From Candidatus Kaiserbacteria bacterium (GTDB lineage Bacteria; Patescibacteriota; Minisyncoccia; Phycocordibacterales; Phycocordibacteraceae): a stretch of 64,000 bases of DNA. Both the position numbers and the translations under genes were made by a program. The notes below the pieces were generated by a model that was not told the DNA's origin, searched no databases, and worked only from the letters and a program-made list of their open reading frames with translations. The first letter of the stretch is position 1; each line of letters begins with the position of its first letter. Location: NCBI GenBank assembly GCA_027451665.1, contig DAIDIW010000002.1, forward strand, positions 212,254 through 276,253. Reading direction: 5' to 3'. Below are positions 4,330-25,090 of this stretch, one piece after another.

Positions 4330-4662
4330 TTAGACACGCCAGATGGAGAACACCCAGTTCACGATCGAAAGCACAATCGCAAAGAAGAACGCCGGCCAGA
4401 AACCGGAGACCGCAAATCCCGGCACGACAACCGCCGCGAGCAAGACAAGAAGCGCGTTGATCACGAGCGTAAAGAGGCCAAGCGTGAGGATCGTGAGTGG
4501 AAGCGTGAGCAGAAAGATGAGCGGACGCACGAGGAGGTTCAGAGCGCCGAGCACGACGGCCGTGATGAGCGCTCCCGTTATCGTGACGGAAACCCCCGGG
4601 ATGAGGTACGCGGCCACGCCGATGGCGACTGCCGATACGAGCCAGTGGAAGAAAAGTCTCAT
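4330..4662 (-). CDS. small 4-TM membrane protein, phage-holin-4_2/DUF360-like
   Basis: 110 aa, almost entirely hydrophobic helices (LVSAVAIGVAAYLIPGVSV...LLTLPLTILTLGLFTLVINALLVLLAA). Confidence 0.5.
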   Translation of the reverse strand: MRLFFHWLVSAVAIGVAAYLIPGVSVTITGALITAVVLGALNLLVRPLIFLLTLPLTILTLGLFTLVINALLVLLAAVVVPGFAVSGFWPAFFFAIVLSIVNWVFSIWRV

Positions 4663-4723
4663 GCGGGTAATGCTAGCACGACCGGGCCGCCTACTCCGGT
4701 CGTGCTACGCGCCATCGGGCGTC

Positions 4724-5419
4724 CTACGCGAGGTGATCCGCAAGGAAAGCGTCGGCGAGCGCCCACGCTTCGTTCGCCGAGGTCTTGTGATAGTGCGCTC
4801 CCACGTCGCGCGCAAAGGCATGATCAGCCTCCGAAAACGTCACATCTACGAACGGTTTGCTCGCGTTAGCCAGCGCATCAGCGACCGCGCGCGTCTTCTC
4901 AACGAGAATGTGTGCATCCTTCCCACCCCAAAAGAAAAGCTGTGGACCTGAAAGCGCGTCCACACGATCGAGAAGCTGCTCACTGATACCGCCACCGTAG
5001 AACGAGACAGCGCATGCAAGCGGCAGCGTAGCATTCGCGAGGAAGCTCGCACGGCCGCCCATGCAGAATCCGAGCGCCGCGATTTTCCCCTTCGGCGCTC
5101 CCTCTCGCACGAGAAGATCGTAGGACGCCTTCAAATCGACCTCCTGACCTTCGAGCGTAAGCGCCGCCATGTGCGGTTTAACCTGCTCGAAATCATCATA
5201 TGAGAACGCCGCGCCGACCTCTGCCGATCGATGGAATACTTCGGGCGCCACGGCGAGATATCCCGCTGCGGTAAATCGCGCCGTCATGCGCTCAATGTAG
5301 TCGGTCACGCCGAACGCCTCCTGAATCACGATGATGCCTGCCTTCGGCGCGCCCTCGGGACGCGCGACGTGGACCTGCATCTCCGTCCCATCTGTTACCT
5401 GAATCGTCATTAGTTCCAT
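4724..5419 (-). CDS. dienelactone hydrolase family alpha/beta hydrolase
   Basis: GIIVIQEAFGV...nucleophile elbow GFCMGG...GGKDAHI. Length 231 aa is typical for DLH. Confidence 0.8.
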   Translation of the reverse strand: MELMTIQVTDGTEMQVHVARPEGAPKAGIIVIQEAFGVTDYIERMTARFTAAGYLAVAPEVFHRSAEVGAAFSYDDFEQVKPHMAALTLEGQEVDLKASYDLLVREGAPKGKIAALGFCMGGRASFLANATLPLACAVSFYGGGISEQLLDRVDALSGPQLFFWGGKDAHILVEKTRAVADALANASKPFVDVTFSEADHAFARDVGAHYHKTSANEAWALADAFLADHLA

Positions 5420-11360: not shown

Positions 11361-11597
11361 TCAGGCGATGATCGAGGCGCAGCAGCACGCGCGGCAGTCG
11401 GGAGACGCCTCCATGCCGTAGATCTCGCGCAGATGCTCGCAGATCTCCCGCGTGCTCATGCCCCGGCCGTACATCGAGATGATCTTCTCATCAAAGCCCG
11501 GAAACCGGCGCTGATATTTGGCGATCAGCTGGGGATCAAAACGCCCCTCCCGGTCCCGCGACACCGCGATGTCCACCTTGCCCGTACTGGTGGTCAC
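11361..11597 (-). mobile_element. IS256-family transposase internal fragment (pseudogene remnant)
   Basis: DREGRFDPQLIAKYQRRFPGFDEKIISMYGRGMSTREICEHLREIYGMEASP matches the conserved IS256/mutator transposase core (DR.G.F.P.L..K.Q.R....D.I...Y..G.STR.I...L...YG...SP). Both the N- and C-terminal parts are missing. Confidence 0.65.
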
Positions 11598-12020: not shown

Positions 12021-12425
12021 ATGAGCGAGTTTCAATCGGGCGTCACCGCACAAGACAAATACAAAACACTCAAAGACGGCACAGTCGCCAAGTACATCTA
12101 CTACGGCTGTACACGATCGAAGGACATACACTGTAAAGGTGGGTACCTCGAAGAAAAAGTACTGCTCGCCCAGTTGTTAGAGATAATTGAAAAGCTGGAT
12201 CTTGATAAGACCGGCATGCGTCGTCAACTCGAGACTGAGATTGAGCGACATAAGGAGTTCAACGCAAGAATCCTTGGTCGTAAAGACGACTACCGAGCCA
12301 AGGATGTTGATATACGAAACTACGCAAAATATATTCTTGAGAATGGGACTGTCTTTGAAAAAAGAAGTCTCCTAGATTGTTTGAAGACTAAGATAATTCT
12401 GAAAAATAAAACTATTAGTACCTGA
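12021..12425 (+). pseudogene. C-terminal fragment of a large serine recombinase (zinc-ribbon + coiled-coil region only)
   Basis: GTVAKYIYYGCTRSKDIHCKGGYLEEKVLLAQLLEIIEKL parallels GGVAHYTYYHCTKRKNPNCSQHSIEETKLEKQIAKELGKL in the intact recombinase at 23394-25031. It lacks the catalytic N-terminal domain and has its own GGAGG RBS. Confidence 0.55.
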
Positions 12426-12430
12426 TGGGA

Positions 12431-14203
12431 TTAGATGATAGACGACAAATTATCAAGGTTGACTCCACTAAGGGCAGATCCTGAGCCGCTTGGCGGTTCA
12501 GCTATTATGACTTTCTTGCCCTCTCCAAAACCAAGAGTGTAGGTGAATTTTCCTTCTTCGTAACTCATGCAATCTGGCAATAAAGTATCTTTCATTAGTT
12601 CTTCGTTCACCATTTTCTCGCCTGCATCGAGAAGTGGTTTTAGGTCAATGTAAAGCAATCTCCTCATTCTCTCTGCTTGTTCGCCGATCCATCCTTGTTT
12701 TTGGTTTCCGCCTGAAGCAAGATAAAACCCAATAAAGATCAGGTATGAACGCAACGCTGCGGGATAGTAACGTCTAATCACATTTGTGCCGATTTGTTCC
12801 CACATCCTTTTCTCGAATGGAGCACGATACCCTTCTTTTAACTGCGGGTCGTATATCATGCCGTGCAATAACTTTTGAACCGTGTGGTATGTATCATTGG
12901 ATTTCTTAATATAGGAAAGCTGATACATGCACTTGTATAAAGCAGCCGCAACACCTTCATTGATCGCTAAATCAGAATAGAAATTTGGCTCTTGGGCGGT
13001 TTTCTCTCGAGCGACGGTGTCGGTATTAAAGGTCTGATCGTTAGCAAGGTACAGATATCCATGCCCAAGGAAGTCTGCAATGATGCCCAAAGACCACCAC
13101 TCATCTTTTAGAGCATACTTTGTGTCTATTCCCCGCCTTTCTTCGATGTTTAGCTTTATACAGATATCAGCAAAAATATCGGCCAAATATTCAAAGCCAT
13201 TATTTATATGTCTTGGAGGAATTGCGCCTGTTTTCAAGTACGTTTCGATTGCTTCGGAAAGAGCCTTGATCAGCACTTCGATACCAGCGATACCAGTGTC
13301 CTTACGTTTAGCATGGCCAAGCGTTGGATAACCAAACAAATCAAAGTTAGTTAGCAGGATCGGAGATTTAAATACGGCCGTGTACACATTCGAAGAAAGA
13401 GCCAGCCCTTTATTGTCCAATTGTTTGTAGAAAAACGATTCATCATCATAGAAAAGACTGCTCATGAGCCTTGGAACTCCTATTCCTGATTGGCGCCGGC
13501 TTATACGATAATGCTCTATCGCGCCGAAAATATACAGGAGGCCGTCAAGGCGTTTTGTTGTTAGAAGGCGAACGATAGACTCATCACTTAAAACTACCTC
13601 GATGATTGAGATTGCATCTCCACTGAAGTCAGCCGATTTTGGATCGCGATTAACAGCGGCCTTGCAGACGGCGTCGAAATTTCTCAATAAAACCTCTAAA
13701 AGCGCGTTTAAACTCTCTTCGGTTGATCTAGAGATTTCTTGAACCATTACTTCATAGAATTTCCGAGATGTCTTTCTATTGAAAAGGCCTCGAGTCCTGC
13801 TTGCAAGGAACAACAAAGAAATGGGTGACGCGATGAAAAACAAATAAGCTAGGAGTTCATAGAAAAGAGTAAAATTCAGCGGGTAAGGCAAATACATCTC
13901 TGGGAATTGCGTGATGAGCACTCCAAGGAGAGTAAGAAAAAGTCCCATTCCTCCAAACACCCAAAACAGATTCCGTTCCCAGACGCTTCGAATTCTCAAA
14001 GCTATGTCCCACTTTGATCTTCTGAGCTGGTATACAGCAAAAATGAGACCGAAAGCAGCAAGGGCGGCTCCAAGATCAAGAGAGGATGGGAAGATGACTA
14101 TGTTGCCAGCACCACAAATAGGCTGAGAAGAGAAACTCAAGAGACAAGAGTGCAGGCCTGTACTGGATGCTTGTGTTAAGGTCGATATTTGAGTTTGGGA
14201 CAT
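12431..14203 (-). CDS. hypothetical 590-aa protein with three N-terminal TM helices and a large soluble domain
   Basis: GC is ~38-40% versus ~65% for the core. TM helices at ~45-65, ~85-105 and ~115-140. No recognisable motif in the ~440-aa C-terminal part. Confidence 0.55.
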   Translation of the reverse strand: MSQTQISTLTQASSTGLHSCLLSFSSQPICGAGNIVIFPSSLDLGAALAAFGLIFAVYQLRRSKWDIALRIRSVWERNLFWVFGGMGLFLTLLGVLITQFPEMYLPYPLNFTLFYELLAYLFFIASPISLLFLASRTRGLFNRKTSRKFYEVMVQEISRSTEESLNALLEVLLRNFDAVCKAAVNRDPKSADFSGDAISIIEVVLSDESIVRLLTTKRLDGLLYIFGAIEHYRISRRQSGIGVPRLMSSLFYDDESFFYKQLDNKGLALSSNVYTAVFKSPILLTNFDLFGYPTLGHAKRKDTGIAGIEVLIKALSEAIETYLKTGAIPPRHINNGFEYLADIFADICIKLNIEERRGIDTKYALKDEWWSLGIIADFLGHGYLYLANDQTFNTDTVAREKTAQEPNFYSDLAINEGVAAALYKCMYQLSYIKKSNDTYHTVQKLLHGMIYDPQLKEGYRAPFEKRMWEQIGTNVIRRYYPAALRSYLIFIGFYLASGGNQKQGWIGEQAERMRRLLYIDLKPLLDAGEKMVNEELMKDTLLPDCMSYEEGKFTYTLGFGEGKKVIIAEPPSGSGSALSGVNLDNLSSII

Positions 14204-14398
14204 CGTACCTCTGAATGATAGACCTTCTCACCGAAGAAGGCCAAGAATCAAGTATTGATCCCTCTAGGGCGTTCGAGAAGAAAACTAGTGGGCTGCGGGG
14301 CTTGGACGATGTTAGAACTGTCCTTTTGACTGGTAAATCGCATTTCGCATATAAAATCACCATACCAGATTTGTTAGCGCGGGTGTAAACTGCGACGG

Positions 14399-14878
14399 AT
14401 GGACGACCTCTCCAACTACGAAAAGCTCCGCGCGGACGCGCAGCAGTTCTATAACGGCTTACGCCCCGTATTCTCGCCCGCGCTCAATGAGAATGTTCAC
14501 TTCACCGCCGAGGGCTTCAATCACATTATTTTCAAGGGGTCGCGTCGGGAGCGCGAGAAGCCCTCACAGATAATGCGCTTCAAAATGCTGGCGCGAGCGG
14601 CCAAGCTCATTGGCCTCTCCACCACATATCAGGAGTACGAGGAAACGCTACATGATTTTGAGGTCAAGAGCCACAAGAAACGCGTCCGCAAATCCAAACC
14701 CGTAAAGTATTGGGGTATCATCGCTATCATTGATGGACGCAAGATAAAGGTTATCGTGCGTAAAATCGGCGATAACGGGCAGCTTCACTTCTGGAGTGTA
14801 GTGCCCGCGTGGACGACAAACAAATACCGCGACGCCAAGTTCATCACCACGATGAAGGGCGACCCCGAGGAGGATTAG
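14399..14878 (+). CDS. hypothetical protein
   Basis: 159-aa ORF with no recognisable motif. It lies in the island between the AT-rich TM protein and the nucleotidyltransferase. Confidence 0.4.
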   Translation: MDDLSNYEKLRADAQQFYNGLRPVFSPALNENVHFTAEGFNHIIFKGSRREREKPSQIMRFKMLARAAKLIGLSTTYQEYEETLHDFEVKSHKKRVRKSKPVKYWGIIAIIDGRKIKVIVRKIGDNGQLHFWSVVPAWTTNKYRDAKFITTMKGDPEED

Positions 14879-15081
14879 GCATATCAAAAAACACCACACG
14901 GGGTGGTGCTCTTTGATATGCCTGCCTTCGGCTTATGTATTAGCCGAATAGGGCTGACGCCCCACAGGCACGGAACTAGTATACCAGATTGGAGTGAAGC
15001 GGCAATGAGCTGGGGATTTCAAGCCTCGAGCCAAAAGCTTCAAGTTTACTCTTTCAGAAAGTCGTCCCCGAGAGGTATTAT

Positions 15082-15618
15082 TTGCGAATGGAAGCAACAT
15101 CGACGCTTGAACTCGCGAGCAGACTACTTGATTGGAAAGACTTGCTCTTGGCGGGATATTGGCTCGTTGGCGCTACTATTGTTGGCGTTTTGTTTCTCTG
15201 GTTCGTTTTTCGAAAACAGTGGCGCTTTTTCAAAAACATAAATAAACCCATCATCTTCATAAACCTGTCCGGTATAAGCGATGGGATGGACGTTGAAGCG
15301 AAGCTATTGCAGCGCAGTCGCTTCTTTTGTACACCGGAGGTTACGAGCGATTGTAGAAGCATCGACTTGGTCGAAAAGCAGAGCTTGGTCGTAATTGGTG
15401 TTAGCGATGCCACCGACGTGAAGCAGTTTGAGGCAATTTACCAAAAAATCGCTACACTCACGAAGCCGACTGTCATTTACACTCTAGGCGCACGTGGAAC
15501 CAGTTTCGTATCGAAAAGCGAGGCTCTCATAAAGGGATATTCTTTCCACACCATCGCCACGACGCCATTGCGTTTGGTAAGCGACATCTTCGCAATACTC
15601 TCTACATTCCCAGAATAA
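15082..15618 (+). CDS. hypothetical membrane-anchored protein (N-terminal TM + ~130-aa alpha/beta domain)
   Basis: TTG at 15082 or ATG at 15088. TM WLVGATIVGVLFLWFVF. Alternating beta/alpha pattern PIIFINLSGISDG...LVVIGVSDATDV...PTVIYTLGARGTSF, Rossmann-like. Its stop is 3 nt from the stop of the convergent nucleotidyltransferase gene. Confidence 0.4.
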   Translation: MRMEATSTLELASRLLDWKDLLLAGYWLVGATIVGVLFLWFVFRKQWRFFKNINKPIIFINLSGISDGMDVEAKLLQRSRFFCTPEVTSDCRSIDLVEKQSLVVIGVSDATDVKQFEAIYQKIATLTKPTVIYTLGARGTSFVSKSEALIKGYSFHTIATTPLRLVSDIFAILSTFPE

Positions 15619-15621
15619 GGG

Positions 15622-16398
15622 TCAGACGACCACTTGGTTCCAGTTGGTGCAACGAAGAGAAGCGGCAGCGGCATTTGCCACCAGACGCTTCTCGAGTGGG
15701 CTAAGCACGTCCGAAACAGCGTTGCTTCTATTCCCCGGGTCATATACTGTTGCAGTCTCGAAGTCGTCCCGCAAATATTCCAAGAAAGAAACAAATCGCT
15801 TCGAAATGGGTAAAAGAAGACCGAGTGGCATCGAGGCGTTCATGGCTGATAGCTCAAGGTAAAACGATGGAAAATCTAAATGGTGCTGGTCGCGCCAGAT
15901 TTTTGTGAGCTTCATTAAATCAGTCCGACCGGATTTCTTCACGGCCTCTATCTGCATACTCACGTTCGTCTTCACCCAAGTATTCTTTTTCCTCACGTAT
16001 ATCGAATGGTCGTTAGCGAGAAAAGCGCCACTTTGTAGCTTCCCGGGCACGAGGTCGACTTCTATAGCCCCGTAAGTGAGACCTATCGAAGAGTTTTGAA
16101 AGCGAGGTGAGTGACCGTTTGCCATCAAGAAGCTATGCAGGCTTTTATGGACATCGTTGAAGGTATAGGGAAGACCGGTTTTTAGGGAGATAAAAAGGTC
16201 TAAGTCAGCCGACCCTTTTATAGCAGTGCCCTTTGCATTAGAGCCAGAGAGTTGCACATAGTTTAGGTATGAGCCAGTCCATGCGCGTATGACCCTTTCG
16301 AGTTCGGACTGTGCATTACCCAAAGCAAACAGTCTCCGCAAATCAGTGGAAACCGAGTGACGCGTCAAGACGGAGTTTAGGTACGGGTCTGGGTTCAC
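15622..16398 (-). CDS. Pol-beta-superfamily nucleotidyltransferase of the cGAS/DncV-like (CD-NTase/SMODS/OAS-like) type, 258 aa, probable GTG start
   Basis: hG[GS]-x9-13-[DE]h[DE]h motif: SGSNAKGTAIKGSADLDLFISL. Third acidic residue in the OAS/CD-NTase-like [ED]VDLVP context: GAIEVDLVPGK. C-terminal helical domain with LMKLTKIWRDQHHLDFPSFYLELSAM, resembling the CD-NTase/OAS K.W....PSS..LE motif. GC ~47%. Confidence 0.6.
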   Translation of the reverse strand: MNPDPYLNSVLTRHSVSTDLRRLFALGNAQSELERVIRAWTGSYLNYVQLSGSNAKGTAIKGSADLDLFISLKTGLPYTFNDVHKSLHSFLMANGHSPRFQNSSIGLTYGAIEVDLVPGKLQSGAFLANDHSIYVRKKNTWVKTNVSMQIEAVKKSGRTDLMKLTKIWRDQHHLDFPSFYLELSAMNASMPLGLLLPISKRFVSFLEYLRDDFETATVYDPGNRSNAVSDVLSPLEKRLVANAAAASLRCTNWNQVVV

Positions 16399-16431: not shown

Positions 16432-17124
16432 CTAGAAGAACTTCAAAAACTCCTTGGTACGCTGTTCTTGTGGGTTTGAGATAAGCTTCTTGTCGCCGCG
16501 CTCAATGACCGCGCCGCCATCCATAAAGACGATATGGTCGCTGACGCGCTTGGCGAAGTTGATGAGGTGGCTGACTAGGAGTATGCCTACGCCCGAAGCT
16601 CGGAGTTTCTCAAGTAACGCCGCAACACGCTCTATCTGCTCAATATCCAAGGCCGAAGTAATCTCGTCAAGCAGAAGATATTTTGGTTTGAGCGCGATTG
16701 CTCGTGCGACTGCCGCACGCTGACGCTGACCAAGAGAGGTCTGATTAGGATAGCGGTCAATAAACGCTTCCATCCCGAGGGCTGCGACCAGCTCTGCAAT
16801 TTCGTCTTTAGTTGAGAGTTTTGCTAGAGTAATGTTCTGCCACAGCGTTAGATGAGGCCATAGGAATAGCTGCTGGAACACCATCGCCACGCGTGGCGAG
16901 GGGTGAGAGAGAACCTTGTCGTCCACCCGCACCTCTCCACTATCAGGAGCGTCCACCCCCGAAAGCACATTGAGCAGGGTGGTTTTGCCCGCGCCGCTCG
17001 GCCCGATAAGCGATACGATGCTGCTCGGCTCAATGGAAATATCTATGCTGTTCAAAATCAACCGTCCATCGCGCTTCTTTCCTATGTTGTGTGCGGTCAG
17101 CATACTAGCGTTCGGAGAAATCAC
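16432..17124 (-). CDS. ABC transporter ATP-binding protein (polar amino acid type)
   Basis: Walker A GPSGAGKTT, signature LSGGQRQRAAVARA, Walker B LLLDE. Confidence 0.85.
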   Translation of the reverse strand: MISPNASMLTAHNIGKKRDGRLILNSIDISIEPSSIVSLIGPSGAGKTTLLNVLSGVDAPDSGEVRVDDKVLSHPSPRVAMVFQQLFLWPHLTLWQNITLAKLSTKDEIAELVAALGMEAFIDRYPNQTSLGQRQRAAVARAIALKPKYLLLDEITSALDIEQIERVAALLEKLRASGVGILLVSHLINFAKRVSDHIVFMDGGAVIERGDKKLISNPQEQRTKEFLKFF

Positions 17125-17767
17125 GAGTAAATCGCTCTCTCAAAACGTAGGCAAGATAGTAGAGCGGTGCAAGCACGAGCATAAAGAATATCGCGAGCGT
17201 AGTGTAAATCTCTACGGGTCGGTAGAGAACGGCATTGAGGTTCTGTGCTACGCGGAAAATCTCGGGAACCGAAATCAAGCTGGCGAACAGGGTAGCTTGC
17301 AAAATAAACAACTGCGTCGTGAGAACAGACGGGATGATTTGACGAAAAATCATCGGGAACTGGATGCGTCTGAAGATGTCGTTACTGGATAGCCCTGCCA
17401 TTTGTGCCGCGACGATGTACTGCTTCGGGAAGTCGGTGAGCACTCCTCTCACCAGTTCTGCGATAGCCGCGATGTTCACGATTGCGAGGGTGAGCACGGC
17501 CGTCAGGAACGGGCTAATCAAAATGCCGAGAAGCGACTGGAATGGATAGTAAAACCAGAACAGGAGAACGAGCAGCGGGATACCCGCCACAATGAACGAG
17601 GCCGTTTTGACCACCGCCCCTGCGGTTGGATTTCTCGCGCCCAGCACCCCAAACCCTGCGCCAAGGACAATACCGAGAACGGATACCGACAAGAACAGCT
17701 CAACGCTTACCAAGAGGCCTCCGAGAAGCGTTGGGTAGTAGTTCACCAGTATGCCGAGAACGGACAT
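17105..17767 (-). CDS. ABC transporter permease (His/Glu/Gln/Arg/opine family)
   Basis: Multi-TM, EAA-like region, overlaps the ATPase gene by 20 nt. Confidence 0.8.
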   Translation of the reverse strand: MSVLGILVNYYPTLLGGLLVSVELFLSVSVLGIVLGAGFGVLGARNPTAGAVVKTASFIVAGIPLLVLLFWFYYPFQSLLGILISPFLTAVLTLAIVNIAAIAELVRGVLTDFPKQYIVAAQMAGLSSNDIFRRIQFPMIFRQIIPSVLTTQLFILQATLFASLISVPEIFRVAQNLNAVLYRPVEIYTTLAIFFMLVLAPLYYLAYVLRERFTRDFSER

Positions 17768-17772
17768 TGTTG

Positions 17773-18630
17773 TTATTGCGCGTAGGGCGTTGCGGGCAGG
17801 AGATACGAATTAGATGAGGACTGATACTTGGCGACGATTTTTGCGACTGCGCCATCGTCTATGGCCTCTTGAAGCGCGACATTGAGCATCTGTTCCAAGC
17901 TACTTTCGCCAAGCGCAACCGCGTAGGCGTTTCCATAAAGGCGGAGTGGTGGAGTTTGGAGCTGACGCAGGGTGCCTGGGTTTGCTTGCAAGAACTCGGC
18001 GGCAGCATCGGGTTGTAAGAACGCAACATCGGCCTTGTTATCAATCACTTGGAGCGGGATTTGGTCAAAGGGCGCAGTCTGCGGCAGGCTGACCTGCTGC
18101 GCTTTTGGGTAATCCGATTGGGCGATTACTTGGCCGAGTTCACCGTCCTGTGTTGAGATTTTCACCGATGGGTCATTTATTGCCGCGAGATTGTTGTCAA
18201 AGCGATGGTCGCTTGTTCGCACATAGGCGTAGACGCCATTGTAGAACGCAGGGATGGTGAGATAGCCCGCCTTAGCGCGTGTGGAGTTAGCCCACAGACC
18301 GCCGCCAAACACATCGTAGCGACCTGCCGAAAGGTCGGTAAAAATCGTGCCGTATCCTGCCTCCTCAACCCACTGCACTTTCAAGCCGAGCTGTGCGGCA
18401 AGCGTGTTAGTGAGGTCATAGAAGATGCCCGAGAGCGCCCCTGTTTTCGGGTCTTGGATAACATACGGCGGATACGGGATGTAGCCAACGCGCATCGTGC
18501 CTGAGGAAATCACCTTGTTGAAGGCGGTATTTGAGGCAGTGGTTCCTTGCGAGCTATGGGTAAAGAGACCGACTACAATCGCAATAACGGCGAGGCCGAT
18601 AGCGATGTAGGAAAGGGTTTTATTTTCCAT
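17773..18630 (-). CDS. ABC transporter substrate-binding protein (family 3, amino acid)
   Basis: Signal/TM anchor then GTMRVGYIPYPPY...LSGIFYDL...AGRYDV. The start was chosen at MENKTLS (ATG 18630) to avoid overlap with the upstream gene. Confidence 0.75.
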   Translation of the reverse strand: MENKTLSYIAIGLAVIAIVVGLFTHSSQGTTASNTAFNKVISSGTMRVGYIPYPPYVIQDPKTGALSGIFYDLTNTLAAQLGLKVQWVEEAGYGTIFTDLSAGRYDVFGGGLWANSTRAKAGYLTIPAFYNGVYAYVRTSDHRFDNNLAAINDPSVKISTQDGELGQVIAQSDYPKAQQVSLPQTAPFDQIPLQVIDNKADVAFLQPDAAAEFLQANPGTLRQLQTPPLRLYGNAYAVALGESSLEQMLNVALQEAIDDGAVAKIVAKYQSSSNSYLLPATPYAQ

Positions 18631-18643
18631 ACAAAATATTGTA

Positions 18644-19336
18644 TCACCCCACTTGTGGTGCAGTAGCAAAGACAATGATTTCAGATGGCACCTCCACTAC
18701 CTCGGCCGAGTAGCCCTTCTCGGCAAGGAAGCTCTGTATCGTAGCGAGATACTTTTCGGGAAGATGTGGGTCAATGCCTTGCGAGGCGTAGTCATACATT
18801 CCCTTCACCAATCCGCCCTCAATGTTGTAGCCGTTGGAGATGGAGTAGATGACGAACGACCTCGCGACGCGCACGCTTTCTTCAAGCGCCTGTCGGGTAT
18901 CAAGGTTGGAGGCGTGGATTGCCCGCATAGAAACATATCCGTCGAAACTCTTATCGGGGAACGGCAGATGCTGGATGTCGCCGTGGACGACGCGGACTTC
19001 GGGATGCTTCTCGGAAATCTTTCCGAGCGCCGTATCGCTCAAATCCAGTGCAGTGATTTCAAAGTCCTTGAAGAACGGGATTTCAGCACCGCTATTTGCG
19101 CCAGCGATAAGGACTGACGGCCGTCCTGCACCCTGCACTGACGGCAGCACCTTCTCGACAAGCGCAGTCAGGGCGTCATCAAACTTGTGCTCGGTATCGA
19201 GTGCCCGCGCATCTTTTGCATACTCAAAATCGCCGTATTTCTCATTGAGCCGCGCGACCAGTTCGGGCAGTTTGTCTGACCGATTTGCTTGCGAGATTTG
19301 AGGGGCGGGGTTCTTCTGAAACCAGTTCCAGCGCAT
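18644..19336 (-). CDS. class I SAM-dependent methyltransferase
   Basis: VLIAGANSGAEIPFF...LDLSDTAL...VHGDIQHLPFPDKSFD (motifs I/II/III). Confidence 0.7.
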   Translation of the reverse strand: MRWNWFQKNPAPQISQANRSDKLPELVARLNEKYGDFEYAKDARALDTEHKFDDALTALVEKVLPSVQGAGRPSVLIAGANSGAEIPFFKDFEITALDLSDTALGKISEKHPEVRVVHGDIQHLPFPDKSFDGYVSMRAIHASNLDTRQALEESVRVARSFVIYSISNGYNIEGGLVKGMYDYASQGIDPHLPEKYLATIQSFLAEKGYSAEVVEVPSEIIVFATAPQVG

Positions 19337-19360: not shown

Positions 19361-19840
19361 TCAGTCAATGAACCCACCGTGGTATGTGGCACGGTAAAGA
19401 GATTTACCGTTAAGTGAAATCTCCTCCGCGCCGCCGAAACGGTCAAGCTCGCCGTCTACGGCATTGCGATAAAGCCAGCCACCTTCCTGATGCACGGAAG
19501 GGCCGCGCACGGGAATTACGCTGCCGTGTGGTTGCATCAATGCCTTGCGCAGAAAATTGTAAACCTCCTTCTCGCTCGTGGCAGGGTCAAGGATGTAGCC
19601 GTAATAGTTCATCCCCCACACAGGCGTACCGCTCTTGTAGACAATCTCTCCACCGATGAAATCCCGTCCGCCGAAATAAGTGTCGTGGTAGGTGAGGTTG
19701 CCCTGCTCAAAGTGATAATCATCGGAGCGCGGGCGTGATGAAGGGGCTTTAGCGGCGTCCTTATTGGCGTAGGTGCTTTTGTTAGCGGCATCCAAGAAAC
19801 GCGTGAGTTCTTGAAGGTCAAGGGGGTTTGCGGCATCCAT
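19361..19840 (-). CDS. hypothetical protein
   Basis: 159 aa with no recognisable motif. Confidence 0.45.
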   Translation of the reverse strand: MDAANPLDLQELTRFLDAANKSTYANKDAAKAPSSRPRSDDYHFEQGNLTYHDTYFGGRDFIGGEIVYKSGTPVWGMNYYGYILDPATSEKEVYNFLRKALMQPHGSVIPVRGPSVHQEGGWLYRNAVDGELDRFGGAEEISLNGKSLYRATYHGGFID

Positions 19841-22112: not shown

Positions 22113-23279
22113 ATGGATACCGTCATCATCAAACTCAATGGGTTCAAAGTCGCCAACATCTCGCTATTCCTGCCAGAACTCAATAAGCGTCGTTTCCAAG
22201 ACCTCTCGCCTACGGAGCGGCAGTCAACGCGTACTTACCTCCGTGCGTTTCGCTTTGAACCACCACACCAAGACGCGTACCTGCCAAAAATAGAGGTTTA
22301 CGAGGCACTGAATGATGACCGTAACGAGCTAACCTACACACTCCAAGCGAGGTTCTCTGTCCCGAAGCTCCTCTACGGCAACAGCGTGCAGGAGGTGAAC
22401 GATAACGACCTTGAACGCGTCATCTATGCTTTTACGAAGGCGCTAACAGGAGCAGGCATTGTCGTCAGTAGCACGACCGTCGCTAATGCTCGCGTTTCGC
22501 AGGTGGACTTCTGCAAAAATATAATCCTGCCACGCGACATACGGATGCAGGAGGTCTTGACCGAGTTGCAGCGCACAGATATCAGCAAAGCGATTGATAT
22601 GACCCAGAAGGAGTACAAGCACGGTGGCCGTACTCTCCACATTTATTCGCAAACCGTGGAGCGTGTCTTTTACGACAAGGTGAACGACGCCACGCGGCCC
22701 AAGGGCAAACGCAAGGATAAAGGGCATATTGAGCGCGAACGCGAAGTGATAGACCGCTATGGGTTAGCGAACCGCGAGATTTTCCGCTACGAGTATCGCT
22801 TGAAGAAAAATCAGGCCGTGAAGCAGAAAGTGAACGCCGCACTTAGGCGACCGTATCCAACAGTCGTTCAACTCAAAGACCTTTTCACGCCCAACCTTTG
22901 CAAAACGATTTTATTGCAATCGTGGCGCGACCTCATCCAACGCCCCGAGAACCAGCTCGCACTTCTCGGCCCAAAGGACGACCTTGCGCTCCTGCAGCAC
23001 ATAATGGGTGGAGCGCGTGAGCAGGGCGCGGTACACAGTATGAACCGTGCTTTCACCTCCTACGGCCTTACACGCGCCATACGCGACCACGGAGCAAAAG
23101 AAGTGCGTAAGGCAGCTGCGGGTTGGAACGCCAACCACGGCGAGCGCCTTACCAAGAAAATGAGAGTTGCGGCCGCACTTACCGAAGGGCTGCCGTATTC
23201 AAATAGTATCGCCGTTGTGTCTGCGTCACTTGAGCAGTTTGAGTACATTTCCCTTTCAACACTTGAAAATGTGGTATAA
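22113..23279 (+). CDS. hypothetical protein, possibly a replication-initiator-like protein of the integrated element
   Basis: 388 aa, placed immediately upstream of the recombinase. The Rep call is from position and size only. No firm motif was recognised. Confidence 0.35.
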   Translation: MDTVIIKLNGFKVANISLFLPELNKRRFQDLSPTERQSTRTYLRAFRFEPPHQDAYLPKIEVYEALNDDRNELTYTLQARFSVPKLLYGNSVQEVNDNDLERVIYAFTKALTGAGIVVSSTTVANARVSQVDFCKNIILPRDIRMQEVLTELQRTDISKAIDMTQKEYKHGGRTLHIYSQTVERVFYDKVNDATRPKGKRKDKGHIEREREVIDRYGLANREIFRYEYRLKKNQAVKQKVNAALRRPYPTVVQLKDLFTPNLCKTILLQSWRDLIQRPENQLALLGPKDDLALLQHIMGGAREQGAVHSMNRAFTSYGLTRAIRDHGAKEVRKAAAGWNANHGERLTKKMRVAAALTEGLPYSNSIAVVSASLEQFEYISLSTLENVV

Positions 23280-23393: not shown

Positions 23394-25031
23394 GTGGGTC
23401 AACCAGACCGTCCCTTTTGCTATATGAAAACTCACCAAAAAATCAAATACTTCGCCTACCTCCGTAAGTCGTCGGAAGGAAAAGAAAAACAGGCGCTCTC
23501 CATTCCTGCGCAACGTGCCCAGCTTTCAGAGCGCTTCTCTGATTTAGATATTGAGTTTGTGGAAGAGGAACGTAGCGCTTTTCTGCCACTCAATCGGCCG
23601 AGGTTCAGCGATATGCTCCTGCGCGTCCGTAGTGGCGAGCGGCAAGGACTGCTCGCGTGGCATCCCGACCGCCTTTCTCGCAATGAGGTGGATGCGAGCG
23701 CGATTACTTATATGCTCCGCACGGGCGAACTCAAAGACCTCAAGTTTGCCACCTATCATTTTGAGAACAACTCGCCCGAGGGTATTTGGATGTTGCAAAT
23801 GGCACTCTCGCAGTCGCAATACGAGAGCGCGAAGAAGGGGCGCGATGTGAAGCGCGGTACCGCACAGAGCGCAAAGAGCGGTTTTTATCCCGCGCCAGCA
23901 CCTATCGGATACCTCAATGACAAGTTCACCGAGCGTGGAAAGAAAAAGAAGCGCCCCGACCCCGAGCGCTTTGCTCTCACACGCAGACTTTTTGACTTGA
24001 TGCTGACAGGCAACTATACGCCTCCGCAAATCCACGACATAGCCGTAAACGAGTGGGGCTTCCGTGGGCCGAAGGGCCGCAAACTTTCCCGCAGTAGTGT
24101 CTACAACATCTTCACTCGGCCGTTCTATTTCGGCGAGTTCGAGCATCCCGCAGGAAGCGGTATTTGGTATAAAGGCGACCACGAACCGATGATTACCCGC
24201 GAGGAATATGACCGTATCCAGTTCCTGCTTGGGCGTAAGGGTAACCCGCGACCGAAGGAACATAAAGACATCGCTTATCGCGGCCCCATGAAATGCGGCG
24301 AATGCGGAGCAGCGATTACCGCCGAGGAGAAGATGAAAAAGCTCGCCAAGGGCGGTGTCGCACACTATACCTACTACCACTGCACTAAGCGCAAGAACCC
24401 GAACTGCTCGCAGCATTCCATTGAGGAGACAAAGCTGGAAAAGCAAATCGCTAAGGAACTTGGGAAGCTCAAAATCCCCGCTGGCTTTACCGCGTGGGCG
24501 GTCGCGCGGCTGAAAGACCAGAACGCCAAAGAGATTACTGACCGCGAGGTGGTCTACAGCAATCAACGCAAGGAGTACGAGGCATGCGTCCGCAAGATAG
24601 ACAACCTGATTGATATGCGGGCAAACAGCGAGATTGACGAGCAGGAGTTCAGGAGCAGAAAGGAAACGCTTCTCGCCGAAAAGGAACGCACTCAAGCACT
24701 CCTGCTAGACACAGACAAGCGCGTAGAGAATTGGCTTGAGGTCGCAGAGCGCGGCTTCAATTTCGCAGAGAAAGCGCCAGCCGTATTCGCCAAGGCAGCG
24801 GCAGATGAGGACTTTGCGACCTGCAAGGAGATATTTACGGCTCTGGGTTCGAACTACACGCTCATAGACGGAAAGTTGAGCATTTCCTTGGATAATCTGC
24901 TGTTCCCGATACAGGAAATCGCGGATGCAATCTGCGACATTCCCTCTCCGTTAGAACTAGAGAAAAACAAAGGAGATGCAAAGGATTTCGGACAACTCTA
25001 CGCCGAAAATCCACGAGTGCTGGGGGACTAG
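23394..25031 (+). CDS. large serine recombinase (phage/ICE-type integrase)
   Basis: N-terminal resolvase catalytic motif YLRKSSEGKEKQALSIPAQ (Y.R.S....Q). Recombinase domain. Zinc ribbon (KCGECG...YYHCTKRKNPNC). Coiled coil. The stop codon overlaps the 3' end of tRNA-Gln. Confidence 0.8.
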   Translation: MGQPDRPFCYMKTHQKIKYFAYLRKSSEGKEKQALSIPAQRAQLSERFSDLDIEFVEEERSAFLPLNRPRFSDMLLRVRSGERQGLLAWHPDRLSRNEVDASAITYMLRTGELKDLKFATYHFENNSPEGIWMLQMALSQSQYESAKKGRDVKRGTAQSAKSGFYPAPAPIGYLNDKFTERGKKKKRPDPERFALTRRLFDLMLTGNYTPPQIHDIAVNEWGFRGPKGRKLSRSSVYNIFTRPFYFGEFEHPAGSGIWYKGDHEPMITREEYDRIQFLLGRKGNPRPKEHKDIAYRGPMKCGECGAAITAEEKMKKLAKGGVAHYTYYHCTKRKNPNCSQHSIEETKLEKQIAKELGKLKIPAGFTAWAVARLKDQNAKEITDREVVYSNQRKEYEACVRKIDNLIDMRANSEIDEQEFRSRKETLLAEKERTQALLLDTDKRVENWLEVAERGFNFAEKAPAVFAKAAADEDFATCKEIFTALGSNYTLIDGKLSISLDNLLFPIQEIADAICDIPSPLELEKNKGDAKDFGQLYAENPRVLGD

Positions 25032-25090
25032 GATTCGAACCTAGATTGACGGGACCAAAACCCGCTGTCCTACCATTAGACGATCCCCCA
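25020..25090 (-). tRNA. tRNA-Gln (anticodon TTG)
   Basis: The reverse complement folds as a cloverleaf: acceptor TGGGGGA/TCCCCCA, anticodon loop TTTTGGT, T-arm GGTTCGAATCC. It resembles E. coli tRNA-Gln. Confidence 0.8.

Follow-up and report, generated by a model that had tools for sequence, protein, structure and literature searches.

A short CBASS-family cyclase gene tail to tail with a candidate membrane effector gene in a Candidatus Kaiserbacteria genome

The convergent genes and their relatives

The DNA analyzed here is a stretch of 64,000 nucleotides (nt) from a Candidatus Kaiserbacteria genome (assembly GCA_027451665.1, contig DAIDIW010000002.1, positions 212,254 to 276,253), hereafter called the window. 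On its minus strand lies an intact, full-length open reading frame (ORF) of 258 amino acids (aa) with a GTG start (15622..16398), which almost certainly encodes a cGAS/DncV-like nucleotidyltransferase (CD-NTase) of the kind that serves as oligonucleotide cyclase in antiphage signaling systems based on cyclic oligonucleotides (CBASS). Converging on this gene from the plus strand is the gene of a 178-aa protein (15082..15618; 176 aa if translation starts at the ATG at 15088), which we propose to be a CBASS effector with a single transmembrane helix (1TM effector). The genes meet in a tail-to-tail junction (15616..15624) that reads TAA (the effector stop, 15616-15618), GGG, and TCA (15622-15624, the cyclase TGA on the minus strand), and thus 3 nt lie between the two stop codons. 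The genes lie too close together for a terminator to fit between them, and a terminator scan found no clean terminator at the junction. A promoter scan of the locus yielded nothing beyond the expectation from shuffled sequences. On its other side, the cyclase gene is separated by 33 nt from an ABC transporter ATPase gene on the same strand (16432-17124). An earlier note on this DNA, made by a model from the sequence alone, had described the 258-aa ORF and both intergenic distances, and all of these were confirmed.

Profile, residue, and structural evidence agree on the identity of the cyclase. The PADLOC model PDLC00803 for CBASS oligonucleotide cyclases matched residues 1-257 over model positions 1-252 of 253 (E=1e-73, 246 bits). 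The matches to Pfam SMODS (21.7 bits, gathering cut-off 26.5) and NCBIfam CBASS_cyclase_a (43.8 bits, cut-off 200) fell below the respective cut-offs but are still significant; both models derive from clades other than that of the window cyclase. Because their scores stay below such curated cut-offs, relatives of the protein are publicly annotated as "hypothetical" or "nucleotidyltransferase". Many members of the family carry a precomputed PF18144 match. In an alignment of 37 homologs the residues G52-S53, D65, D67, and D115 are invariant and kept in the window protein, as are K166, W168, S178, E182, and L183 of the C-terminal helix; the nucleotidyltransferase and helix motifs quoted in the earlier note are thus present and fall on invariant columns. 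The AlphaFold model derived from the family alignment (predicted local distance difference test score, pLDDT, 92.8; predicted template modeling score, pTM, 0.88) has a bilobed cGAS-like fold with a nucleotidyltransferase core and a helical C-lobe. The top 28 Foldseek matches of this model in the PDB were all CdnB, CdnC, CdnD, CdnE, or CdnG structures (E down to 1.6e-12; template modeling score, TM-score, ≤0.79), headed by E. coli CdnC and followed by the CdnD of E. cloacae and P. aeruginosa (TM-score 0.75-0.79). A search of PDB sequences with the family profile gave the same picture (EcCdnC 3e-15, BcCdnD 1.5e-12, PaCdnD 3e-10).

Weak matches to NTP_transf_2 (17 bits) and to an archaeal CCA-adding enzyme profile (24.5 bits), together with the mere 33 nt to the same-strand ABC ATPase gene, could point to a toxin–antitoxin enzyme of the MNT/KNTase/AbiEii type or to a housekeeping nucleotidyltransferase co-transcribed with the transporter. 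Both matches are, however, far below their cut-offs (21 bits for NTP_transf_2), whereas PDLC00803 is matched over the full length and the C-lobe is cGAS-like. The AbiEii profile did not match the protein, Pfam and PADLOC searches found no HEPN neighbor or partner, and none of the homologs examined is associated with an ABC transporter. We therefore reject this identity, whose likelihood is negligible, in agreement with the earlier note, which had favored a cGAS/DncV-like enzyme over MNT and AbiEii.

The cyclase belongs to a family of at least 358 homologs, nearly all of them 250-270 aa long with a usual length of ~252 aa, which occurs in Alphaproteobacteria, Bacillota, Acidobacteriota, Bathyarchaeia, Vibrio cholerae, and other groups. 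Its 258 aa are thus a normal size for its own family, though short compared with CdnC and CdnD (300-340 aa), and the earlier remark that it is small for a CD-NTase holds only for the latter comparison. A scan of species-representative genomes yielded 202 relatives, and 80 loci were kept for counts of genomic context. In 72 of these 80 loci, a NucC gene lies directly downstream of the cyclase gene in the same direction. The four closest homologs of the window cyclase (P0002, 59% identity; P0003, P0004, and P0005, 47-49%) and two more distant ones are directly followed, on the same strand, by a gene for a ~240-aa DUF6602 protein that matches PADLOC NucC effector models (E=1e-74 to 1e-102). According to a preprint, cyclic tri-AMP activates the nuclease NucC (bioRxiv 10.1101/694703). 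The 64-kb window contains no NucC remnant that could be detected by tblastn with four NucC proteins (best E=0.13).

A catalogued 1TM effector takes the place of NucC at three loci, L038, L053, and L078 (PDLC00664, E ~1e-60 to 1e-69). Its gene abuts the cyclase gene and is co-directional with it, lying downstream in L038 and upstream in L053 and L078. The PDLC00803 model spans both NucC-linked and 1TM-linked cyclases, and the latter are scattered in a neighbor-joining tree of the family, which has no bootstrap support. This distribution suggests, as an indication only, that exchanges of NucC for a 1TM effector have recurred among the short cyclases. At three further loci (L055, L066, and L081) no recognizable effector accompanies the cyclase, although L081 harbors a second, different cyclase upstream (PDLC00809, E=9e-135). 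In L092, from Scytonema, an 87-aa truncated 1TM fragment (4585-4848) lies upstream of the cyclase gene. In Petroclostridium sp. X23 (L006/L007, 183-6513), a short cyclase-NucC pair directly follows four consecutive genes with KAP_NTPase, QatB, and TatD_DNase domains. By their content, these genes resemble a Qat-type defense system, and the locus may be a defense island.

The 178-aa protein has a single N-terminal transmembrane (TM) helix at about residues 20-45 according to hydropathy. Because a basic stretch follows this helix, the positive-inside rule places the C-terminus in the cytoplasm. The C-terminal domain is predicted to be a five-stranded, flavodoxin-like alpha/beta domain (AlphaFold pLDDT 84). 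PADLOC model C3a59 (PDLC01057), a "trans-membrane (TM)" effector model, matched the protein with E=1.5e-11 and 42.6 bits over model positions 33-163 of 167. PDLC00664 did not match it. Typical 1TM members score 165-230 bits. A weak match (8e-4) was obtained with Mem_04, described by PADLOC as a type III CRISPR-associated membrane protein and possibly a diverged CARF protein. Identity to typical 1TM effectors of the L038, L053, and L078 type amounts to 17-21%; a joint profile nevertheless retrieves these and the 178-aa subfamily alike, and the two share nine invariant columns across 39 sequences, which correspond to R48, F82, K128, Y133, R164, L165, D168, I169, and T175 of the window protein. 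Based on these profile and alignment data, we assign the 178-aa protein to the CBASS 1TM effectors as a putative divergent member of the family. Its match to a TM effector model agrees with the earlier note, which had envisaged a type-I-CBASS-like combination of the cyclase with a membrane effector and had called the layout unusual.

While the 1TM effector class as a whole is abundant, with >1,900 clusters, the subfamily of the 178-aa protein is rare. An indexed search found five members, and when 1.84 billion representatives were searched exhaustively, nine matched at E<=1e-30. No viral contigs carrying the subfamily were found, and a literature search turned up no description of a mechanism for the 1TM class. 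In all six subfamily lineages with genomic context, a cyclase gene is adjacent to the 178-aa-type gene. In four of these lineages (L008-10, L011-12, L094, and L098), the 1TM gene lies upstream of, and co-directional with, the gene of a 448-462-aa cyclase, at a distance of 1-3 nt or, in L094, with an overlap of 11 nt. SMODS and AGS_C domains are on record for the large cyclases of three of the four lineages, and the L094 protein (462 aa) lay outside the profile scan. In the window, neither a remnant of an AGS_C cyclase nor homologs of the genes that neighbor the TM gene elsewhere were found, apart from recombinase matches. The oddity of the locus is thus its chimerism, with a cyclase of the NucC-linked lineage and an effector of the AGS_C-linked lineage standing tail to tail. 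The cyclase itself is a new member of an already catalogued CBASS cyclase family, and since PADLOC models exist for this family, for NucC, and for 1TM effectors, the view of the earlier note that the system is potentially undescribed was overstated.

Conservation of the tail-to-tail junction

The nearest relative of the 178-aa protein (P0122, 76% identity) is encoded on an 899-nt metagenome contig, L093, which aligns with window positions 15050-15678 at 73.7% nucleotide identity over 630 nt. On the opposite strand of L093, the 75 nt past the effector stop encode ...ASEKRTIANVAAASLRCSDWNQIVV*, the C-terminus of a short cyclase, for which the corresponding end of the window cyclase is ...LEKRLVANAAAASLRCTNWNQVVV; the opposite-strand product at the L093 junction is also given as ...EKRTIANVAAASLRCSDWNQIVV. 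The two stop codons of L093 overlap (CTAG), and a 1-nt indel distinguishes its junction from that of the window. The junctions are homologous, and therefore have a single origin and have persisted through ~26% nucleotide divergence, while upstream of the effector gene the window and L093 have unrelated DNA. The pairing of the cyclase with an adjacent membrane protein hence recurs outside the window. This had been one of two points on which the earlier note had made its proposal depend, the other being that the best profile match should not be of the MNT type.

Between the window and L093, the effector gene shows a ratio of nonsynonymous to synonymous substitutions (dN/dS) of 0.084 at a synonymous divergence (dS) of ~1.85. 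Among the 25 visible codons of the L093 cyclase, the proportion of synonymous differences (pS, 0.67) likewise exceeds that of nonsynonymous differences (pN, 0.20). In the window, neither gene is truncated, and every residue that is invariant in the respective family is retained. Since the junction recurs in L093 and the dN/dS value is 0.084, the pair appears to be maintained by selection, and the comparison of these sequences makes a functional unit more likely than debris.

The main competing explanation for the chimerism is that the locus is wreckage, in which a cyclase that lost its NucC and a 1TM gene that lost its AGS_C cyclase came to lie side by side without any joint function. Several observations weigh in its favor and against a working pair. 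The nearest relatives of the cyclase and of the 1TM protein have different partners, and the two genes converge, whereas a type I CBASS is expected to form one co-directional operon and every fetched cyclase locus with an identified full-length 1TM-type effector is indeed co-directional. The left side of the surrounding genomic island is decayed (see below), and orphan cyclases or truncated 1TM genes occur elsewhere, as in the loci L055, L066, L081, and L092 mentioned above. Moreover, the convergent combination of a cyclase with a 1TM effector has so far been seen in two sequences, one of which (L093) shows a fragment of the cyclase only, and a metagenome scan for further convergent examples returned a single locus, L094, where the effector gene is co-directional with that of the 462-aa cyclase. 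These points are difficult to reconcile, however, with the intactness of both genes and of all their invariant residues, with the retention of the exact junction in L093 even though the flanking DNA differs, and with a dN/dS value that, at near-saturated synonymous sites, implies long purifying selection after the junction had formed. We therefore regard wreckage as unlikely, albeit as an explanation to be taken seriously.

The abutting stop codons could themselves be a selected regulatory architecture. As no terminator fits between the genes, the convergent transcripts must overlap, and antisense effects or transcriptional interference might then set the ratio of cyclase to toxic effector. 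Control of an abortive-infection module by transcript overlap would be new for CBASS, if true, but we consider this idea doubtful, along with its corollary that one small flavodoxin-like TM sensor works with two unrelated cyclase clades (short CdnC/D-like and SMODS+AGS_C), both of which would then be predicted to make the same signal. An inversion that flips one gene relative to the other is not supported, because no inverted repeats surround either gene: around the cyclase gene and around the 1.4-kb segment that carries the effector gene, only short repeats at chance level were found. An invertible segment at this locus was thus rejected.

The island and its other genes

The pair is located in a region of low GC content (43-53% across ~12-25 kb, compared with 57-60% outside). 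At the right-hand side of this region lies the gene of a 545-aa large serine recombinase (23394-25031; Resolvase, Recombinase, and Zn_ribbon_recom domains; PHROG integrase match with E=3e-65), the end of which abuts or overlaps a tRNA-Gln gene on the minus strand (25019-25090). GC content is back up to 57-60% at the tRNA gene, and this site is likely the right-hand integration boundary of the island, although no att-like repeat matching the tRNA-Gln region was found on the island's left. Directly upstream of the recombinase gene is the gene of a 388-aa protein resembling rolling-circle Rep proteins (22113-23279), which matched Phage_CRI (G2P) with 26 bits, just over the Pfam cut-off, and a PHROG replication-protein family weakly. 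Together, these two genes suggest an integrative element with rolling-circle replication. Given the recombinase, the tRNA-Gln end, and the Rep-like gene, we conclude that the island consists of one integrated mobile element or of several stacked together. The left side of the island is decayed: a second large serine recombinase (12036-12419, plus strand), which shares 50% identity with that of L002, is reduced to its ~128 C-terminal residues, and a Mutator-family transposase is present as a 78-aa fragment (11361-11597, minus strand).

In L002 and L003, which carry NucC-linked relatives of the window cyclase, the gene order is cyclase, NucC, a 599-aa protein, and a serine recombinase. The 599-aa protein (6518-8317 in L002) is 58% identical to a 590-aa protein encoded in the window on the minus strand, within a 43% GC stretch (12431-14203). 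This 590-aa protein has three N-terminal hydrophobic segments, in keeping with the earlier note, which had called it a 3-TM protein, had also pointed out its AT-richness, and had named it, besides the 178-aa protein, as a possible membrane partner of the cyclase. Such a role would fit the three TM segments and the fact that the elements of L002 and L003 carry both the 599-aa homolog and a related cyclase. The homolog in L002, however, stands between a complete cyclase-NucC pair and the recombinase gene, which it abuts, as would be expected for element backbone or cargo. The 590-aa protein is missing from all 80 other cyclase loci and is shared with one related mobile element only; it has no match in Pfam, PADLOC, NCBIfam, or PHROG, and two opposite-strand genes and a hairpin separate it from the cyclase gene in the window. 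It thus appears to be a conserved backbone or cargo component of this type of element, and it is very unlikely to be the real partner of the cyclase. Of the two membrane proteins proposed earlier, the 178-aa protein is accordingly the one that we retain.

The segment between the 590-aa gene and the cyclase gene (14204..15621, 1.4 kb) occupies the slot that holds NucC in L002. Besides the 1TM effector gene, it contains a 159-aa ORF on the plus strand (14399-14878) with sub-threshold matches only (LPD3, 19 bits; PADLOC PDC-M04B) and a hairpin with 21-nt arms that are 90% complementary (14877-14923). Because the hairpin immediately follows its 3' end, the 159-aa ORF looks like a transcription unit of its own. 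L093 has no conserved counterpart of this ORF upstream of its TM gene. PHROG searches with the cyclase and with the 178-aa, 590-aa, and 159-aa proteins gave no matches.

On the other side of the cyclase gene, and on the same strand, lie the genes of a polar-amino-acid type ABC transporter, which comprises the ATPase, a permease (17105-17767), and a solute-binding protein (17773-18675), and those of a class I methyltransferase (18644-19336) and a DUF5680 protein (19361-19840). Because all of these genes share its strand, the cyclase gene may be transcribed by read-through from the ABC operon.

Serine recombinases also flank the CBASS pairs of L002, L008, L011, and L095. Related integrative elements are thus the vehicles of these small CBASS modules, and they offer an opportunity for the recombination behind the chimera.

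Proposed function and comparison with known systems

We propose that the locus is a chimeric type I CBASS, in which a short cyclase of the NucC-linked lineage and a 1TM effector from the AGS_C-cyclase lineage form a functional pair, and assign this reading a probability of roughly 60%. In composition the locus corresponds to type I, with an effector gene adjacent to the cyclase gene and no Pfam or PADLOC matches to CBASS ancillary proteins among the ORFs of the 12-25 kb region. The absence of Cap2/Cap3, HORMA/TRIP13, SAVED, and STING genes nearby, reported in the earlier note, was confirmed by the same searches. As the backbone of the L002 type, with the 590/599-aa protein and a recombinase, is still recognizable, NucC has been replaced in place by the 1.4-kb segment, and the 1TM gene would have come from a kind of CBASS whose usual cyclase is a larger SMODS+AGS_C enzyme. 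One possible route is that a 1TM gene with its AGS_C cyclase once faced a NucC gene with its short cyclase tail to tail, and that the two inner genes were deleted. This route is conceivable because tail-to-tail CBASS modules do occur. In L019, from a Bathyarchaeia metagenome-assembled genome (1515-4028), a short cyclase without a downstream effector of its own stands tail to tail with a second CBASS unit on the opposite strand, which consists of a 290-aa cyclase of another clade and a 280-aa NucC-like protein. The convergent arrangement in L019 is a plausible precursor state for chimeras.

According to this proposal, phage infection would activate the cyclase to produce a cyclic oligonucleotide, most likely a cyclic trinucleotide such as cyclic AAA (cAAA) or cyclic AAG (cAAG). 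A trinucleotide is the best guess because NucC is the dominant partner of the family, closely related cyclases swap NucC for 1TM effectors, and CdnC and CdnD are the closest folds. The 1TM protein would then bind this signal through its cytoplasmic flavodoxin-like domain and might oligomerize and damage the inner membrane, and the infection would be aborted. The residues that may specify the product are in conflict. The window cyclase has a conserved threonine as Lid 1 (T144), a glutamine as Lid 2 (Q149, encoded at 15952-15954), and SGSN as its XGSX motif. In clade C/D enzymes, glutamine at Lid 2 goes along with cAAG synthesis and histidine with cAAA synthesis, whereas serine at the first position of the XGSX motif is as in makers of cyclic tri-adenylate (cA3) (PMC13424991). 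The serine of SGSN thus resembles cA3 makers and Q149 resembles cAAG makers. Lid 2 glutamine is common to the window cyclase and P0002-P0005, all four of which are NucC-linked, while most of the family has histidine; judged by this residue, the sub-clade may signal with a trinucleotide different from that of the remaining family.

The logic could also be the inverse, as in Panoptes, where a constitutively synthesized decoy nucleotide keeps a TM effector inactive until phage sponges or phosphodiesterases use up the decoy, so that the effector becomes toxic. Panoptes, too, consists of two genes, one for a minimal cyclase and one for a TM effector; its type II combines cA3 with a Rossmann-fold CARF-TM effector (PMC12657218, PMC13577387). 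The weak similarity of the 178-aa protein to Mem_04, a possible diverged CARF membrane protein, and the lack of regulatory extensions in the cyclase would be compatible with such a guard. The synthase, however, is a Pol-beta-fold CD-NTase and not the mCpol palm domain that defines the Panoptes family (PMC12657218). In addition, its nearest relatives and 90% of its family are paired with the nucleotide-activated NucC, so that constitutive synthesis would be lethal in those systems, and the repeated swaps of NucC for 1TM effectors among close cyclases suggest one shared, activating logic. A guard function, for which the analysis yielded no evidence, is hence highly improbable.

If the chimeric CBASS pair works, it would represent a natural experiment in CBASS modularity, in which a nuclease effector was exchanged for the membrane effector of another cyclase clade, and its genes would have stayed together under purifying selection although they lie on opposite strands. 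Defense-system finders that require co-directional operons could then miss real systems, and biochemists would gain a very small cyclase-effector pair (258 + 178 aa). It would also lead to a testable prediction on a ligand shared by NucC, 1TM effectors, and AGS_C-type cyclases. Since effector swapping is a known feature of CBASS, the conceptual surprise would be moderate.

Compared with the CBASS formed by short CD-NTases and NucC (PDLC00803 with PDLC00745 or PDLC01051), the window locus has a cyclase of the same family and length with the same invariant residues and, in the case of L002, the same mobile-element backbone. It differs in that NucC is absent, its slot holds genes of the opposite strand, and Lid 2 is glutamine instead of the mostly found histidine. 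With the short CD-NTases that are linked to catalogued 1TM effectors (PDLC00664/C3a59) in L038, L053, and L078, the window shares the cyclase family and also the effector architecture of an N-terminal TM helix, a ~125-aa alpha/beta domain, and invariant arginine, lysine, tyrosine, and aspartate residues. There, however, the abutting genes are co-directional, whereas the window gene is convergent and encodes an effector of the rare subfamily. The 1TM effectors found with SMODS+AGS_C cyclases (L008-L012 and L098, and probably L094) are 37-59% identical to the 178-aa protein, their genes likewise abut the cyclase gene, and several of these loci have a serine recombinase nearby, but their cyclases are of another clade (448-462 aa, best matches PDLC00822 or PDLC00773) and are encoded downstream in the same direction.

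The closest solved folds are those of CdnC from E. coli MS115-1 and CdnD from P. aeruginosa, E. cloacae, and B. cereus (6p80, 6p8u, 7d4u, 9sa4). These synthases of cyclic trinucleotides, some of which are also partnered with NucC, share the GS/DxD/D site and the Lid 1 threonine with the window protein. The latter is 40-80 residues shorter, only 15-21% identical, and lacks HORMA/TRIP13 or Cap2/Cap3 companions, and its relationship to these clades is judged from fold and profile searches. Panoptes, which combines mCpol with a 2TM-beta or CARF-TM effector, is likewise a two-gene system of a minimal cyclase and a TM effector; it differs from the window locus in its synthase fold, an mCpol palm instead of a Pol-beta CD-NTase, and in its inverse, guard-type logic.

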